Positions 24,072 through 49,280 of a stretch of 64,000 nucleotides of DNA are shown in pieces. This DNA comes from an uncultured Gammaproteobacteria bacterium. Lineage in GTDB: Bacteria; Patescibacteriota; Microgenomatia; UBA8517; JACQJR01. The notes beneath the pieces are model-generated. The model searched no databases and was not told the origin of the DNA. It saw only the letters and a list, made by a program, of their open reading frames with translations. Location of the stretch: positions 19,842-83,841 of the forward strand of contig CAYTZB010000003.1 of NCBI GenBank assembly GCA_964442455.1. The letters are read 5' to 3'. The translations under genes and the position numbers were made by a program. Within the stretch, counting starts at the first letter, position 1. The number at the start of each line of letters is the position of its first letter.

Positions 24072-24371
24072 ATGCAGTCTATAAAACAAATACTTGATAA
24101 ATTTGATCCCTTAAAAGATAAATACATTTCTCGGGAGTTTCAGAAGTATGGATATGAGTTAGCCGAGGAGTTGGGGGATTTAGAGCATAAAGGGCTCTAT
24201 ATGAAACTTGCAAAAGAGTTGCCAAGAGCAATATTGGAGCATGCACGGAATTTTGTGAAGGATGCGGGGAGTGTGGATTCAAGGCCGAGATTGTTCATGT
24301 GGAAAGTAACTCAGCTCCGTAAGGAACTGAAAGCACGAAGCACGAAATCCGAAGCACGAAACAATATTTAA
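24072..24371 (+). CDS. hypothetical protein; C-terminal tail encoded by a palindromic repeat
   Basis: 99-aa ORF. Its last roughly 14 codons (KARSTKSEARNNI) come from the CGAAGCACGAA repeat element. Confidence 0.3.
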   Translation: MQSIKQILDKFDPLKDKYISREFQKYGYELAEELGDLEHKGLYMKLAKELPRAILEHARNFVKDAGSVDSRPRLFMWKVTQLRKELKARSTKSEARNNI

Positions 24372-24443
24372 TGTTTTAAACATTTTAAAATTCAAAACGT
24401 TTTGAATTTGTTTCGAATTTCGATATTCGAATTTCGAATTTAT
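24329..24443. repeat. AT-rich palindromic element, CGAAGCACGAA...TTCGAATTTCG family (intergenic copy)
   Basis: GAAGCACGAA units on the left arm and TTCGAATTTCG units on the right arm form an imperfect long hairpin. Same family as the rRNA insertions. Confidence 0.6.
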
Positions 24444-35257: not shown

Positions 35258-35392
35258 CAAATCCGAAGCACGAAATCCGAAATCTGAAACAATATTTAAA
35301 TTCAAAATCACAAGTTCAAAACGTTTAGAATTTGAGAAATTAGAATTTTGAATTTGTTTCGAATTTAGAAATTCGAATTTAGAATTTACTTA
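35258..35392. repeat. AT-rich palindromic element, CGAAGCACGAA family (intergenic copy)
   Basis: AATCCGAAGCACGAAATCCGAAATC ... TTTCGAATTTAGAAATTCGAATTT arms. Follows a hairpin right after the trxA stop. Confidence 0.6.
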
Positions 35393-41579: not shown

Positions 41580-41961
41580 ATACAATTGACATTTTTATAA
41601 CAGCATTCAAGAAAACCGCGACCCGTAAGGTCGCGGATGAATTGAACGCTGATATGTCATCCTCCTTTAGAGGTGAAAACCCCGTTCGTAAGAACGGGGA
41701 GGATGTCATAAATAGCATACAACCCTCCAGCAAACGCAGCTTGAGCCGTTCCGCCAGCTGGCGGATGAAAAGCGAAAGCTAAGTTGCGGAGGGTGGTTTA
41801 ATAAGCACCTTGACAATCAGAAAGTGATCGGAAGTCAATTTTTTGTACTTTCGATGTAACTCAGTACAAAAATACTGAGCGAAGTCGAATGTATTTTTGA
41901 GGGTTTGATCCTGGCCCAGGATGAACGCTAGCGGCGTGCCTTAGGCATGCAAGTAGAACGG

Positions 41962-42160
41962 TCCTTGTGCTTTGCACAAGGAAATTCGAAGCACGAATTT
42001 TAAAGCACGAAATTCGAATATCGAAGCACGAAACAAATCATAAATTCAAATTTTCAAATGTTTCAAACATTAGAATTTTGAACATTTAGTATTGTTTCGA
42101 ATTTCGTATTTCTGATTTCGAATTTAATTTTCTTTCGGATTTTCTCGCGCAGAGCGCGAG
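41962..42160 (+). repeat. intervening-sequence-like palindromic element inserted in 16S helix 6 (V1)
   Basis: Lies between GCAAGTAGAACGG and GGATAGTTGCAAACGGGTGAGTAACGCG. Bounded by hairpins CCTTGTGC-TTTG-CACAAGG and CTCGCGC-AGAG-CGCGAG. Core is the CGAAGCACGAA...TTCGAATTTCG element. Confidence 0.6.
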
Positions 42161-43538: not shown

Positions 43539-44282
43539 AGACGCAAACTGCGTTTGTTGCGACCTTCTGGAGTAATCCAGTTGAAAAATTCAACTGTATC
43601 GGTGAACTCCTACTTGATATTCGCGTCATCTTCGGATACGCTGAATTAAAAAGGAGAATACCGAGGGAAGTCTCCCATTAGATACGAAGTTATCTAACGG
43701 GATGACCCCGTAGAGACTACACGTTGACTCCTCAAGAATGACTAAAGCATATTTGCTTGGCGCTTTACATGACGGTACCGTACGGAGACTAACTTATCGC
43801 ATCGTCCAGAAAGATCAAGAGTACATTGAATTTCTTGTAAAAGGGATTCAGAATCTTGGTCAAAAAGTCTGGATGTATAAAGAAGGGAAGAGCAGACAAC
43901 TTTATGTTGCCGAGTTCTCAAGAAACTTCTTAAAAGATTTTGTTTTGCAAACTTTGCAGGACAAAGTTGATTACATCCGAGGTTATTTCGATGCAGAAGG
44001 TGGAGTCTCGAGAAATCCAAAAGTTCGATACTACATTTATTTCGCTCAGAAAAATCTAAAAGATTTAGAGCAGGTAAAAAGATTTTTAGAAGAACTAGGG
44101 ATAGAATGCGGTATCTTACATAATCCAAGCAAAGGAGTAGACCCCAATTATTGGCGATTTTTCGTTAGAGCTTGTTCTTACGGAAGATTTGCACACTTAA
44201 TTGGAAGTTGGCATCCTGTTAAAAGTCAATTTTTGAGGATGAAGATATAGTCCATGCCACTAGTAATAGTTGGAGTAACATG
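43539..44282 (+). mobile_element. intron in 16S rRNA at E. coli position ~1506 (putative group I), encoding a homing endonuclease
   Basis: Removing 43539-44282 restores the universal AAGTCGT|AACAAGGTA. The 5' exon ends in U and the insertion ends in G. Confidence 0.7.
43738..44250 (+). CDS. LAGLIDADG-family homing endonuclease (intron-encoded)
   Basis: Two LAGLIDADG-like motifs, LLGALHDGTV and IRGYFDAEGGV. 170 aa. Located entirely inside the 16S insertion. Confidence 0.8.
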   Translation: MTKAYLLGALHDGTVRRLTYRIVQKDQEYIEFLVKGIQNLGQKVWMYKEGKSRQLYVAEFSRNFLKDFVLQTLQDKVDYIRGYFDAEGGVSRNPKVRYYIYFAQKNLKDLEQVKRFLEELGIECGILHNPSKGVDPNYWRFFVRACSYGRFAHLIGSWHPVKSQFLRMKI

Positions 44283-44595
44283 AACAAGGTATCCGTACTG
44301 GAAGGTGCGGATGGATCACCTCCTTTCTAGGAGAAATAGGGTTCACGGCCCTATCCGCCAATTGGCGGAGTGATATTCACCCGAGAGTTTACCTTTACTC
44401 TCGTTTCCTCCCAAAGCCCATTTTGGGCATTGTGGCGGACCAGCCTAAATACTTTTGTTTTTGGCTGGAAACAACAAAAGGATTCTTCCGGTCACTTTCT
44501 GAAGGTCAAGGAAAAAATCCCTAGCAAACGCTGGGGATTTTTTGCCTCCGGCCCTTGAGGGCCTCTGGCCCGGAGGGTATAATTAATGTGCCTTT

Positions 44596-45350: not shown

Positions 45351-45909
45351 CAATCCGCCAGCTGGCGGAGGTTCTTTGACAACCAAGAGAAAATTGTGCA
45401 AGATTTAAACTATTTGCCTTTTGATAACACGAGGCAAGATAGTGGAGTAGAGCCGTGTCAACAGAACGCGCACAGTGGATGCCTTGGCACACGCTACCGA
45501 AGAAGGACGCAGTTGGCCGCGATACTCGTCGGATAGGTGCCAACAACCGATAATCCGGCGATTTCCGAATGGGGAAACCCCTCCGATGGTAACATCGGAG
45601 AGCCCCCGATTTAATCGGGGGTGGGGAACTCGGGGAACTGAAACATCTAAGTACCCGGAGGAAGAGAAATCTAAGAGATTCCGTCAGTAGCGGTGAGCGA
45701 AAGCGGAAGAGCCTAAACCCCCTCGTGGGGTGTTGTGGGACTAACATACGGGATGGAGGAGGATAGCAGAAGAGTCTGGAATGGCTCACCAAAGAAGGTG
45801 AAAGTCCGGTACGCGAAATCCAAATCCACCTAGTTTTGCTCCCAAGTACCATGGAGCAGATACTCTGTGGGAATCTGGGGGGACCACCCTCCAAGGCTAA
45901 ATATAGTGT

Positions 45910-45952
<43 letters not shown>

Positions 45953-46009
45953 TGGGCGGGACGCCCAGTGAAATAGAACCTGAAACTGTGTGCGAACAAG
46001 CCGGTAGAG

Positions 46010-46203
46010 CTTGTGCATGGCACAAGAAATTCGAAGCACGAATTTTAAAGCACGAAATTCGAATATCGAAGCACGAAACAAATCATAAATTCAAATTTTC
46101 AAATGTTTCAAACATTAGAATTTTGAACATTTAGTATTGTTTCGAATTTCGTATTTCTGATTTCGAATTTAATTTTCTTTCGAGTTTCTCGCGCTGTGCG
46201 CGA
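46010..46203 (+). repeat. intervening-sequence-like palindromic element in 23S helix 25 region (E. coli ~540)
   Basis: Lies between ...GAACAAGCCGGTAGAG and TGATACCGTGCCTATTGAAGAATGAGCCGGCGAGT. Hairpins CTTGTGC-ATGG-CACAAG and CTCGCGC-TGTG-CGCGAG. The core is nearly identical to the 16S copy. Confidence 0.6.
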
Positions 46204-46716
46204 GTGATACCGTGCCTATTGAAGAATGAGCCGGCGAGTCCTCATCGTTTCTGTGTCTAAGTCATTAACTGACGCAGGCATAGAGAAATCGAGTGTGAAT
46301 AGCGCGTTTCTGGTCTATACCAGATTAGAAACGGTGGGGGACCCGAAACCGGGCGATCTATCCATGGGCAGGGTGAACCCCGCAGAAATGCGGGGGAAGG
46401 CCCGAACCCGTCTAGGGGACAATCTGGTGGGATGACCTGTGGATAGCGGTAAAATGCCAATCGAGCCCGGAGATAGCTGGTTCTCCCCGAAAGGTCTATG
46501 GGGACCGCGGAAGTAAAAAGCGTGTCAGGGGTAGAGCACTGAATGGGTGGAGGAGGGTAACCGACTTCACTCAATCAAACTCCGAATACTGGCGCGTATA
46601 AATCCAGACAGACTCACGGGGCTAAGCTCGTGAGTCGAGAGGGAAACAGCCCAGATTCTCGTCTAAGGTCTCGAAGTCTTGGCTCAGTTGGAAAGGATGT
46701 CATATTCCCAAGACAC

Positions 46717-46747
<31 letters not shown>

Positions 46748-46845
46748 TAAAGAAAGCGTAACAGCTCACTGGAAGAGGCCCGCATGGGCTGGGAGTATGG
46801 CGCCGAAAATGATCGAGGATTAAGCCAAGCACCGAAGACAGAGGG

Positions 46846-47013
46846 CCTTGTCATTTGGACAGGGAAATTCGAAGCACGAATATCGAAGCTCGAAACAATA
46901 TCAAAATTCAAAAATTTAAATTTCAAAATTATTTTGAATTTAGTATTTTAAGAATTGTAATTTGTTTCGGATTTCGGATTTAGAATTTCGGATTTTCTCG
47001 CCCAGAGGGCGAG
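46846..47013 (+). repeat. intervening-sequence-like palindromic element in 23S helix 45 region (E. coli ~1170)
   Basis: Lies just before the conserved TTGGTAGGGGAGCGTTCCGTA. Hairpins CCTTGTC-ATTTG-GACAGG and CTCGCCC-AGAG-GGCGAG flank a GAAATTCGAAGCACGAA ... TTTCGGATTTCGGATTT core. Confidence 0.6.
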
Positions 47014-48369
47014 GTTGGTAGGGGAGCGTTCCGTATGCGGTGAAGTTTCACCGTAAGGTGAGGTGGAGCGTACGGAAGTGAGAATGCCGGCATGAGTAGC
47101 GTACGAGTCCGGTGAGAATCCGGACCGCCGAATACCCAAGGTTTCCGTCGCAACGTTCGTCGACGACGGGTTAGTCGGTCCTAAGGAGAGCCCGCCAACT
47201 GGCGGGGTATCTGATGGGAAAGCCGTTAATAATCGGCTACTCGTTTTGTATCGTTATTTAGCCAGGGGTTGACGAGTGTGGAGGTGTTGGGCCCTATACA
47301 GATTGGGGTGTAAGCTGCAAGGCAGTTCCGGCAGGGAAATCCGCCGAAGCGTTTTAACCGAGCAGCAATGCAGACCCCCGTAAGGGGGAATTCAACTACC
47401 TTTAGACTCCGAGAAAAGACTCGTGGTGAGATACAGAACGGACCGTACCGCAAACCGACACTGGTGGGTTGGCAGAGTATGCTAAGGCGAGTGGGAGAAA
47501 GAGGCTCAAGGAACTCGGCAAACAAGCTGGACGTAAGTTCGCAAGATGTCCTCCCCACCCTTTCTGGGTATCAGTATTCCGATATGGGTATTGGTATTTA
47601 GAAAGGGTGGGGTGCAACAAATGACTGTCTCTCGACTGTTTAGCAAAAACACAGGTCCCTGCAAACCCGAAAGGGAAGGTATAGGGGCTGACGCCTGCCC
47701 AGTGCCGGTAAGTCAAGGGGAGGTGTCCGTTGTCCGCCTTTGGCGGACTATGGAGCACTGAACTGAAGCTCCGGTAAACGGCAGCAGTAACTATAACTGT
47801 TCTACGGTAGCGAAGTTCCTTGTCGTGTAAGTTACGACCCGCACGAAAGGCGTCACGAGGAGACAACTGTCTTGAGCCTTTACCCAGCGAAATTGCGATG
47901 GCTGTGAAGACGCGGCCTACTTGCACCAGGACAAATAGACCCCGTGGAGCTTTACTGCAACCTGGCATTGCTACCATTTGTTTTGATTGTTGAGCGTAGG
48001 AGGGAGTCCTTTCCGCAAGGTCAGGACGTCAATGAAACACCTCTCTTCAAAATACGTGGGGCTTATCTGAGTCCGCTGGAAACGCGGATAGAAACAGTGC
48101 TTGGTGGGCAGTTTTACTGGGGCGGTATCCTGCTAAAGTGTAACGCAGGAGTGCAAAGGTCGGCTTAGCACGGATGGAAATCGTGCTGGACGGGTAAGAC
48201 CTTAAGCCGGCTTGACTGCAAGGTCGACGGACCGAGCAGGTACGAAAGTAGGTTCTAGTGATCCTCGCGTTCGTCGTGGGACGGCGCGGGCTTAACGGAT
48301 AAAAGCTACCCCGGGGATAACAGAGTAGTCGGTCCCGAGAGTCCATATCGACGGGCCGGTTCGCTACCT

Positions 48370-48720
48370 CAACAATGACATCGGGGTCCTTCGATGGTAA
48401 CATCGGAGTGCTGTTAGTCAAACTCTACCAGTAGTTTGGCAAAATATCGACTCATAACGGTGAATCCTGTATATTGACATTCGTGTATCTTTCGGGATAA
48501 CGTTAGTTAATAATGGTAACACCGTGGGAAGTTTATCGGATGTTCAACAACAATTAATTTTAGGTTGTGTCTTGGCGGTATAAAATTCCGATATAACCCC
48601 GTATCGACTTTTTCTTTTTAAGAAAAGATGGAGAGTTTTCTCCATAATACGTCGACGCCCATTTTGTTGTGATGGGTGAAGGTATAGTCAGGCTACCACG
48701 AAAGTGGATAGGTTTATTTG
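48370..48720 (+). mobile_element. ORF-less intron-like insertion in 23S rRNA at E. coli ~2499/2500 (candidate group I intron)
   Basis: Removing 48370-48720 restores GCTACCT|CGATGTCGGCTC (E. coli GGCACCTCGATGTCGGCTC). The exon ends in U and the insertion ends in G. GAAGGTATAGTCAGG resembles the group I S element AAGATATAGTCC. Confidence 0.45.
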
Positions 48721-49157
48721 CGATGTCGGCTCAGCGTATCCTGGGGGTGAAGAAGCTCCCAAGGGTTGGTCTGTTCGCCCATTAAAACGCTACGCGAGCT
48801 GGGTTCAGAACGATGTGAATCAGTTCGGACTCTATCCGGTGCAAGCGTGAGAGTCTTGAGGGGATCTGGCCTCAGTACGAGAGGACCAGGCTGGAGGAAT
48901 CCCTAGTGTGCCGGTTGTCCCATCCGGGGCAACGCCGGGTAGCTACATTCCTACGGGATAACTGTTGAAAGCATCAAATCAGGAAACCCACCCCAAGATG
49001 AGGACTCCTTATCAAGACCCCTGGAAGATTACCAGGTTGATAGGTAGGAGGTGGAAGGAGAGCAATCTCTTAAGCCTACCTATACTAATTGGTCAACACA
49101 CGGCTTACTCCACACATTTTGTTTCGTGTTATTAGAAGGCAATTTTCTCATGAGTTG

Positions 49158-49280
49158 TTTGGCCTGGTGGCTCGAGCGGTATGGAACCACCTCTTCCCAT
49201 CTCGAACAGAGAAGTGAAACGTACCAGCGCCGACGATATCCTAACATTACGTTTGGGGAAAATAGGTCGTTGCCAGGCCA
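49158..49280 (+). rRNA. 5S rRNA
   Basis: TTGGCCTGGTGGC...CCCATCTCGAACAGAGAAGTGAAAC...TGCCAGGCCA. Typical 5S ends and loop C. About 120 nt. Confidence 0.8.

Follow-up and report, generated by a model that had tools for sequence, protein, structure and literature searches.

A group I intron at position 2500 of a Patescibacteriota 23S rRNA gene that probably lost a LAGLIDADG homing endonuclease

We analyzed a 64,000-nt stretch of DNA from the genome assembly of an uncultured bacterium (GenBank GCA_964442455.1, contig CAYTZB010000003.1, positions 19,842 to 83,841 of the forward strand; Patescibacteriota in the GTDB lineage). We will refer to this entire stretch as the window. It contains a single ribosomal RNA (rRNA) operon, on the + strand, and the 23S rRNA gene of this operon is interrupted by 351 nt at 48370-48720. 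Judging from its sequence, its predicted fold, and its relatives, this insertion is very probably a group I intron that has lost an I-SceI-like LAGLIDADG endonuclease gene and that is spliced from the pre-23S rRNA. It lies at site L2500, directly 3' of nucleotide 2500 in the E. coli numbering. All of the parts of the intron are on the + strand; a window coordinate equals the intron position plus 48369, and where we give both, the intron numbering comes second.

Position and boundaries of the insertion

Rfam places the start of the 16S rRNA gene at 41893, the 23S rRNA gene at 45451-49107, and the 5S rRNA gene at 49163-49278. The 23S match exceeds the length of the model by about 730 nt, and a MAFFT alignment to the E. 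coli gene rrlH accounts for the excess by three larger insertions. One of these is a single 351-nt block at 48370-48720, directly 3' of E. coli U2500. An earlier note on this DNA, made from the letters alone, had described an insertion with exactly these limits and had placed it at about 2499/2500; the alignment agrees on the limits and narrows the site, as the insertion falls after U2500 and not after 2499. The note had also claimed that removing the insertion restores conserved 23S sequence, and indeed removal gives ACCU followed by CGAUGUCGG or, in a longer reading, ACCU-CGAUGUCGGCUC, within the joined exons ...ACCUCGAUGUCGG.... The restoration of ACCU-CGAUGUCGGCUC is what identifies the site as L2500. 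The flanks of the splice sites are ...GGTTCGCTACCT on the 5' side and CGATGTCGGCTC on the 3' side, and the intron itself starts with CAACAATGAC and ends with GGTTTATTTG. A U at the end of the exon (U48369) and a G at the end of the insertion (G48720), both of which had been pointed out before, are present.

Helices 89 and 90 flank L2500, which belongs to the single-stranded ring of the peptidyl-transferase centre. The 5' exon of this host reads GCUACCU instead of the usual GGCACCU, with GCU replacing GGC at 2494-2496 (two differences). Helix 89 has the complementary changes in its second strand, where AGU replaces GCU, so the exon changes are ordinary rRNA covariation. The G+C content is 0.38-0.39 inside the insertion, compared to a value of about 0.55 for the flanks. 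In annotation, this genome's 23S rRNA gene should be represented as two exons, 45451-48369 and 48721-49107.

The ribozyme core and its relatives

The insertion contains the elements of a group I intron: a U·G pair at the splice site, a terminal guanosine (ωG) together with a P10 pairing, the P4-P6 and P3-P7-P8 domains, a P7 with a guanosine-binding site, and the joining segments J8/7, J4/5, and J6/7. It also has the two hairpins P7.1 and P7.2 between the 5' strand of P7 and the 3' strand of P3, as in subgroup IA. In the window sequence, each of the 86 proposed base pairs is a standard one. The group I reading of the earlier note is thus supported by the core, by the U and G at the splice sites, and by the covariation that we describe below.

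The internal guide sequence, as read from the sequence, is the ACAUCG/GGGU region at 48376-48387. Its P1 strand, GGGU at 48384-48387 (G15-U18), pairs with ACCU at the end of the 5' exon (48366-48369; E. coli 2497-2500) to form U·G, C-G, C-G, and A-U, where U48369 is the U of the 5' splice site. The adjoining P10 strand, UGACAUCG at 48376-48383 (U7-G14), pairs with CGAUGUCG in the 3' exon (48721-48728; E. coli 2501-2508). The 5' strand of P7 follows J6/7 and runs to 48609, with U48604, a bulged C48605, and GACU at 48606-48609. The pairs of P7 are U235-A321, G237-C320, A238-U319, C239-G318, and U240-A317, with C236 bulged; the guanosine-binding pair is G48606-C48689, beside the bulged C48605 on the 5' strand. 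J8/7 (GAAGGUAU) and the 3' strand of P7 (AGUC plus A) occupy 48678-48690. Thus, a P7 and a guanosine-binding site, which the earlier note had proposed to look for, are both present, and GAAGGTATAGTCAGG at 48678-48692, which it had likened to the S element of group I introns, is J8/7 plus the 3' strand of P7 in the Rfam group I alignment. In that alignment, J8/7 is matched to the consensus GAAGAUAU, and J6/7 retains GUA. The ωG is the last nucleotide of the intron (48720; 351).

A permissive Rfam scan of 48300-48800 matched Intron_gpI (RF00028) at 48405-48710, over the full length of the model (1-253), with 32.2 bits and E = 1.6e-6. In the same scan, no non-rRNA family besides Intron_gpI matched, and no group II family did. 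The gathering cutoff of RF00028 is 50 bits (a curated cutoff, not a biological feature), and a scan of the entire window at the gathering threshold found no intron. So, the Rfam check that had been proposed does find Intron_gpI, full-length and with a low E-value, but below the gathering cutoff. Homologs at the same site do exceed this cutoff (75.9 bits for L007 and 64.9 bits for L012; these are our labels for the relatives), and the low scores of window-type introns are due to the extra material in P7.1/P7.2, P5, and P6 rather than to a missing core. Because 32.2 is less than 50, a scan at the default threshold alone misses the intron, and annotation that relies on default Rfam thresholds will overlook it.

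We also built a covariance model (R1) of the 3' domain, from the 3' strand of P3 to the end of the intron, using 25 L2500 introns and excluding the window and its two nearest relatives, L014 and L050. Across both strands of the whole window, R1 matched 48647-48719 (30.8 bits, E = 8.5e-5), and its only other significant match, at 44221-44283 (38.1 bits), is an intron in the 16S rRNA gene that is described below. (A MAFFT alignment of about 11 relatives that lack an open reading frame, or ORF, was too poor in the variable loops to yield a full-length covariance model.) The conserved pattern of 5' exon plus guide sequence is expected to occur by chance 0.00 times in the window. Furthermore, GGGU is found within the first 40 nt of all 25 of 25 L2500 introns that were gathered without reference to the guide sequence.

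Among species-representative genomes, the exon-plus-guide pattern identified 23 genomes with an insertion at L2500. Most of these are metagenome assemblies of Patescibacteria, also known as the candidate phyla radiation (CPR). The carriers outside of the CPR are two Coxiella endosymbionts of Ornithodoros ticks (L002 and L018), whose introns are over 800 nt and bear ORFs, and two proteobacterial metagenome assemblies, from Hyphomonadaceae (L004) and Gammaproteobacteria (L015). In a metagenome collection, a pattern for the core (P4 together with P4'/P6) matched at least 120 contigs. We extracted at least 47 L2500 introns, mostly from CPR, and their lengths are bimodal: 253-477 nt for those that are ORF-less, and 789-1050 nt for those with a LAGLIDADG ORF. 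They have in common the motifs UAACGGUGAA, AAYACCGUGGGAAG, CCCGUA..GACU, and GAAGRUAUAGUC. The core is found at 10 or more sites in 23S rRNA (about 580, 780, 1931, 1951, 2449, 2500, 2504, 2511, 2593, and 2656, from BLAST against E. coli 23S). Examples of this spread among L025-L144 are L088, L091, L095, L109, L122, L124, and L121, the last with three copies, which is the highest number in a single gene.

The nearest relatives of the window's intron are the 300-nt, ORF-less intron of L014, which is a metagenome-assembled Patescibacteria genome, and the 892-nt, ORF-bearing intron of L050. Both share the unusual exon GCUACCU with the window. L115 has this exon as well but has no intron at 2500; its uninterrupted site reads ...GCTACCTCGATGTCGG.... 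Between hosts, the introns are 69-77% identical and the flanking exons are 72-82% identical, so the two have diverged to a similar extent. The 23S rRNA of the window's host is about 72% identical to that of L014.

To score compensatory changes, we aligned the introns of the window, L014, and L050 (L050 without the body of its ORF and without a 70-nt insertion). In this three-relative alignment, 91.6% of the cells are paired, and 22 of the 86 pairs have changes on both sides, compared to 9.6±2.2 when the columns are shuffled (none of 500 shuffles reached 22). If the partners are slid by 1-3 columns, there are just 2-8 pairs with double changes. The double changes are located in P2, P2.1, P3, P5a, P6a, P7.1, P7.2, P8, and P9.

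The broader family supports the helices of the catalytic core. In 118 instances among the matches listed, the outer pair of P7, on the far side of the bulge, takes the forms A-U (71), G-C (35), U-A (10), and A·C (2); it is U-A in the window. This covariation settles the register of P7. We rejected an alternative with the bulge on the 3' strand (A321) and a C236-G322 pair, as the covariation across the family favors U235-A321 with C236 bulged. The 5 bp of P3 are paired in 81.5% of cases across 99 distinct members (matches listed), compared to 68.5% after permutation (0 of 1,000 permutations were as high), and the fourth of these pairs is C-G in 45 of the listed sequences, U-A in 37, and U·G in 6. 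For P8, a count at fixed register across the family is only weakly above its control (60% versus 55%). Because the register of P8 varies, the support for this helix comes mainly from the three close relatives.

P8 also covaries with the loop of P2. In 90 members of the family (matches listed), the third base of the GNRA loop L2 tracks one pair in P8: 18 of 22 GNGA loops occur with AG on the 3' strand (CU:AG), and 59 of 68 GNAA loops occur with GG (CC:GG). The window has GUAA and GG, while both L014 and L050 have GUGA and AG. The CC:GG pairs of P8 are likely the receptor of the GUAA loop, and this covariation of loop and receptor indicates a putative L2-P8 tertiary contact that is conserved across the family. 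The rule that GUAA goes with CC:GG and GUGA with CU:AG was reportedly set out by Jaeger, Michel and Westhof in 1994. The A-minor geometry of the contact between GYRA tetraloops and helical receptors has been described (PMC7913685).

The remaining helices are as follows. P2 (48389-48408; 20-27/32-39) has 8 bp and the GUAA tetraloop L2 (48397-48400); in the three-relative alignment it is 100% paired, and 3 of its pairs have double changes. P2.1 (48417-48440; 48-55/64-71) has the conserved ACCAGU in its loop, and 5 of its 8 pairs have double changes among the window, L014, and L050. (The Rfam alignment instead has a first hairpin at 40-48/56-64, with one mismatch. We rejected this hairpin because the compensatory changes in L014 and L050 support only P2.1.) The 5' strand of P3, UCGAC (48447-48451; 78-82), pairs with GUCGA (48651-48655; 282-286). 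The 5' strand of P4, ACGGUG (48457-48462; 88-93), is followed by AA (J4/5) and pairs with 48520-48525. The 3' strand of P4, CACCGU, is preceded by UAA (J5/4) and continues into the 5' strand of P6, GGG; together these span 48520-48528, which falls within the family-wide motif AAYACCGUGGGAAG. P5 and its extension P5a/P5b occupy 48466-48516 (P5 is 97-98/146-147), and the extension is capped by a UUCG loop. P5 has 2 C-G pairs here, compared to 5 bp in L014. P6 (157-159/228-230) has its 3' strand, CCC, at 48597-48599, and P6a, UAUCGGA/UCCGAUA (48534-48593; 165-171/218-224), encloses the remnant of an ORF. P7.1 (48610-48626; 241-247/251-257) and P7.2 (48628-48645; 259-265/270-276) are kept as helices in the window, L014, and L050, although all three sequences differ. 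P8, GCCCAU...AUGGGU (48657-48677; 288-293/303-308), has 3 pairs with double changes in the three-relative alignment. Finally, P9 (48693-48711; 324-330/335-342) has a GAAA tetraloop.

The endonuclease relic, splicing, and alternative explanations

The earlier note reported no ORF in the insertion. This is correct in that no ORF inside the insertion is longer than 34 amino acids, and an intact endonuclease is not encoded there. However, 21 codons plus a stop codon from the N-terminus of an endonuclease gene remain at 48518-48583, overlapping P4'/P6/P6a. The relic, NTVGSLSDVQQQLILGCVLAV followed by the stop, aligns to ...NTVGSLSKVQKQVILGSILGDGYM... in the intact ORF of L050, which encodes a protein of 189 amino acids that belongs to LAGLIDADG_2 (Pfam, E = 6e-40) and whose nearest solved structure is I-SceI. 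In ORF-bearing relatives, the reading frame starts in P5'/P4', crosses AAUACCGUGGGAAGU, and enters the loop of P6. AAUACCGUGGGAAGU (48518-48532 in the window; also in L007 and L050, for example) is read as N-T-V-G-S in all of the ORF-bearing relatives. Because AAUACCGUGGGAAGU is both the best-conserved motif of the core and coding sequence, it is constrained as RNA and as protein.

Downstream of the relic, the window rejoins L050 at ...AAAAUUYCGAUAUAACCC. The intron of L050 is 541 nt longer (892 versus 351 nt), which comprises an ORF of about 470-500 nt in the P6a loop and 70 nt inserted after P7.2. P6a itself shows compensatory changes, with UAUCGGA/UCCGAUA in the window versus UAUCGAAA/UUUCGAUA in L050. 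As for the 70-nt insertion in L050 (at about 753-822 in its intron, or 250-319 once the 502-nt ORF body is removed), it is flanked by direct repeats of CCAUAA and contains two ACAAGUUUG repeats.

We take the intron in the window to be a deletion derivative of an endonuclease-encoding intron, and not a primitively ORF-less one, based on how the relic and its surroundings align to L050. In L015, an ORF of this type has been deleted in part; together with the intron-less L115, this fits a cycle of gain, decay, and loss that is still under way. Because the endonuclease gene has been deleted, the intron would be unable to promote its own homing. The earlier note had allowed for either a small self-contained intron or a degenerate derivative of one. 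A self-contained, ORF-less intron fits better than a degenerate derivative, as the core bears no signs of decay.

We infer from the sequence that the intron splices, and that it does so without the help of a protein. In this model, which follows the known chemistry of group I introns with its two transesterifications, the intron would be transcribed within the pre-23S rRNA and would fold into P1-P2-P2.1-P3-P4-P5(a,b)-P6(a)-P7-P7.1-P7.2-P8-P9. The guide GGGU would hold the 5' exon ACCU, with the U·G wobble at the splice site, and a free guanosine bound at G48606-C48689 would attack 3' of U48369 (the first transesterification). ωG48720 would then enter the pocket, while P10 (UGACAUCG/CGAUGUCG) would align the 3' exon, which begins with C48721. 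Ligation of the exons would restore the ring of the peptidyl-transferase centre. The ancestor would have been a mobile intron with an I-SceI-like LAGLIDADG gene in the loop of P6, the start of which reached into P5'/P4'/P6. Today, the intron would be inherited vertically or would be mobilized only by an endonuclease from a relative.

Several observations weigh against this model or against the strength of the evidence for it. The Rfam score of 32.2 bits is below the cutoff of 50, and L014 scores just 19.8 bits. P1 has just 4 bp with the exon, compared to 7 in most relatives (which have the exon GGCACCU and the guide sequence GGGGUGCC); the exon of this host went from GGC to GCU, a change that the guide sequence has not followed. 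P5 is down to its 2 C-G pairs, with U·U on the flanks. Energy minimization recovers the local hairpins (the minimum free energy has z = -3.29 relative to shuffles), but the minimum-free-energy fold does not contain P3. The octamer UAUCGACU is present twice, at 48445-48452 (the 5' strand of P3) and at 48602-48609 (the 5' strand of P7), and either copy is able to pair with GUCGA at 48651-48655. In the minimum-free-energy fold, it is the second copy that pairs with the 3' strand of P3: because UAUCGACU is found at the 5' strands of both P3 and P7, the energy minimum favors a local alternative to P3. It is possible that the duplicated octamer acts as a folding trap or a switch. Also, the sequences behind the covariation counts are related to one another and hence not independent, and the patterns with which some family members were gathered fix P4 and P6.

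A short P1, a P5 that is weak relative to those of relatives, and a minimum-free-energy fold that prefers the alternative to P3 could all be accounted for if this group I intron needed a protein cofactor in vivo, whether a host RNA chaperone or a LAGLIDADG maturase such as the protein encoded in the 16S intron. Some LAGLIDADG proteins double as maturases (Belfort 2003, as cited in PMC11270868), and the LAGLIDADG_3 ORF of the 16S intron lies 4 kb upstream in the same transcript. Against this, the protein from the 16S intron is only distantly related to the endonucleases of L2500 introns (the best BLASTP hit has E = 1e-3), the catalytic core is complete, and two tetraloop hairpins are retained. 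Furthermore, the match between the L2 loop and its receptor in P8 points to an RNA that still folds alone, and about 20 ORF-less relatives persist at L2500 in the set that we collected. Overall, we consider it unlikely that a cofactor is needed. We see just a slim chance that the intron is dead, with its 351 nt either kept in the mature 23S rRNA or cut out to leave a fragmented 23S rRNA. An unspliced intron at L1931 of Simkania has been reported (Everett 1999, as cited in PMC11270868), and helices 25 and 45 of the window's 23S rRNA contain hairpin insertions that resemble intervening sequences (IVSs), which implies that this organism probably processes its rRNA by cleavage. However, an insert or a nick between U2500 and C2501 is hard to square with a working ribosome, the window contains just one rRNA operon, and the guide sequence matches the exons, with a perfect P10 and a P1 over 4 bp. 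The compensatory changes in 22 pairs also imply selection on the ribozyme itself.

That the region is no intron of the group I kind, but rather a chimera of the assembly, an expansion segment, an IVS of the RNase III type, or a group II intron, is scarcely credible and, as far as sequences can tell, is refuted. Its low G+C content (0.38-0.39 versus about 0.55) is what any foreign insertion would show. Expansion segments and IVSs are located at the tips of variable helices such as 25 or 45 and form one long hairpin, as the insertions in those two helices do; this insertion has a multi-domain fold and is in the invariant peptidyl-transferase ring, in line with the earlier note, which had held that it cannot be an expansion segment. 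A group II intron would have six domains, with a catalytic domain V, and nothing of this kind matched in the permissive scan of 48300-48800. In contrast, the region has a group I core that is supported by covariation, no other Rfam family matches it, and homologs with identical boundaries are found in dozens of independent assemblies.

If the intron is spliced, as we propose, then what maintains the ribozyme? The insertion parts U2500 from C2501 within an invariant single strand, so a 23S rRNA that is left unspliced or nicked there would probably not work. The need for a functional 23S rRNA is probably why the ribozyme is still conserved. We also considered whether excision might be retained as a checkpoint or timer for the assembly of the peptidyl-transferase centre, so that the intron would be more than a selfish element in decay. 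In CPR bacteria there is one rRNA operon, and the set of ribosome-biogenesis factors is much reduced. If it were true, purifying selection would keep the ribozyme, including the docking of L2 into P8, long after the loss of the endonuclease. The compensatory changes that keep up the fold, the comparable divergence of intron and exons, and the many ORF-less copies are all compatible with a checkpoint, but the need to splice explains them equally well, and we view a checkpoint as very unlikely.

Other insertions in the window and comparison to known introns

The 16S rRNA gene contains a second group I intron, which follows E. coli U1498, occupies 43539-44282, and is 744 nt long. Its guide sequence, UUGUU-GCGAC, fits both AACAA in the 3' exon and GUCGU in the 5' exon. 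The core is styled like that of the L2500 family, and the LAGLIDADG_3 ORF (43738-44250) is in the loop of P8, with its last codons overlapping P8', J8/7, and P7'. Because the Rfam alignment for the small subunit rRNA ends the 16S rRNA at 43595, this ORF appears to sit in the spacer, but the true 3' end of the 16S rRNA, GGATCACCTCCTTTCT, is at 44311-44327. We considered whether the ORF could be the endonuclease of the L2500 intron, relocated, and rejected this given its distant similarity (best BLASTP E = 1e-3); it belongs to the 16S intron.

The window also contains long AT-rich hairpins. Two of these are 97% identical over about 181 nt, at 46014-46194 (helix 25 of the 23S rRNA) and at 41968-42150 (helix 6 of the 16S rRNA). 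Copies that are 70-76% identical are found at about 46864-47001 (helix 45 of the 23S rRNA) and, outside of the rRNA genes, at about 24329-24442 and about 35259-35391. Together, these copies make up a dispersed family of palindromic repeats. They look like a small mobile hairpin element, which is also found at the classical sites of IVSs that are processed by RNase III.

Insertions in the rRNAs of CPR bacteria were first reported by Brown et al. (2015) and were surveyed by Tsurumaki et al. (2024; PMC11270868). According to the survey, 82% of CPR 23S genes have insertions of at least 100 bp, and Rfam assigns 45% of those insertions to group I introns; the group I introns in CPR 23S genes include 222 that are ORF-less and 211 with an ORF. 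The sites that are named there are 1917, 1931, 1952, 2593, 2604, and 2657. The introns at 23IS6-23IS14, like the one at L2500, are in domain V around the peptidyl-transferase centre, and those at 23IS9-11, between 1952 and 2593, are described as new for bacteria. L2500 is probably one of 23IS9-11. In the same text, ORF-less and LAGLIDADG-encoding forms are said to share sites, with high similarity outside of the ORF and with "degenerate ORFs with large deletions," and the L2500 intron fits this description closely. One difference is that LAGLIDADG_1 predominates at the six named sites, while the relatives at L2500 carry LAGLIDADG_2 (I-SceI-like). Whether the survey would count the window's intron depends on the cutoff: its 32 bits are below the gathering cutoff, but its E-value of 1.6e-6 is below the E ≤ 1e-4 that is quoted for one insertion site (IS).

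Our search of the literature did not find a group I intron under the label L2500, but it did find rrl_2500, which is a group I site in the chloroplast large-subunit rRNA of green algae (Lemieux, Otis and Turmel 2016, PMC4877394). The rrl_2500 introns are at the same site and are of the same class, with an organelle as host.

The classical sites of introns in bacterial 23S rRNA are L1917, L1931, L1951, and L2593 (Haugen et al. 2007, PMC1995217), as in Thermotoga (L1931), Coxiella burnetii (L1917 and L1951), Simkania (L1931), and Synechococcus/Thermosynechococcus (L1917, L1931, and L2593). Those introns are likewise associated with LAGLIDADG genes and with conserved sites, and their ORFs run from peripheral loops into the core (PMC1995217). 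The cyanobacterial intron at L2593 also has P7.1, P7.2, and a short P2, as the L2500 intron does. The classical list differs in that it does not include L2500, and the intron in the window differs in having lost its ORF. Of the 47 introns that we extracted at L2500, 9 end in A (typically ...RUA before CGAUG in the 3' exon), with a G-C pair kept at the guanosine-binding position. These include L015, L020, L026, L046, L077, L078, L094, and L129, and several have an intact endonuclease ORF. They resemble the published L1917 intron of Coxiella burnetii, which lacks ωG.

P7.1 and P7.2 are also present in an intron of phage Twort (PMC1995217). Introns of subgroup IA, such as phage T4 td and Twort orf142-I2, share with the L2500 intron the two hairpins between P7 and P3 and the GNRA loops L2 and L9, and we would expect the chemistry of splicing to be the same, but their host genes and their sequences are unrelated. 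Because some relatives at the same site (L005, L007, L012, and L016) lack P7.1 and P7.2, the L2500 family crosses the classical boundary between subgroups.

In summary, the L2500 intron is an ordinary member of a kind that has been known in CPR rRNAs since 2015 and was catalogued in 2024, so it leaves the current understanding of these introns unchanged. It provides a clean example of a late stage of the homing cycle, in which the endonuclease gene has been deleted and the ribozyme remains under selection, within the part of the ribosome that is most conserved. Its relatives show that L2500 is heavily used in bacteria, with at least 47 introns.

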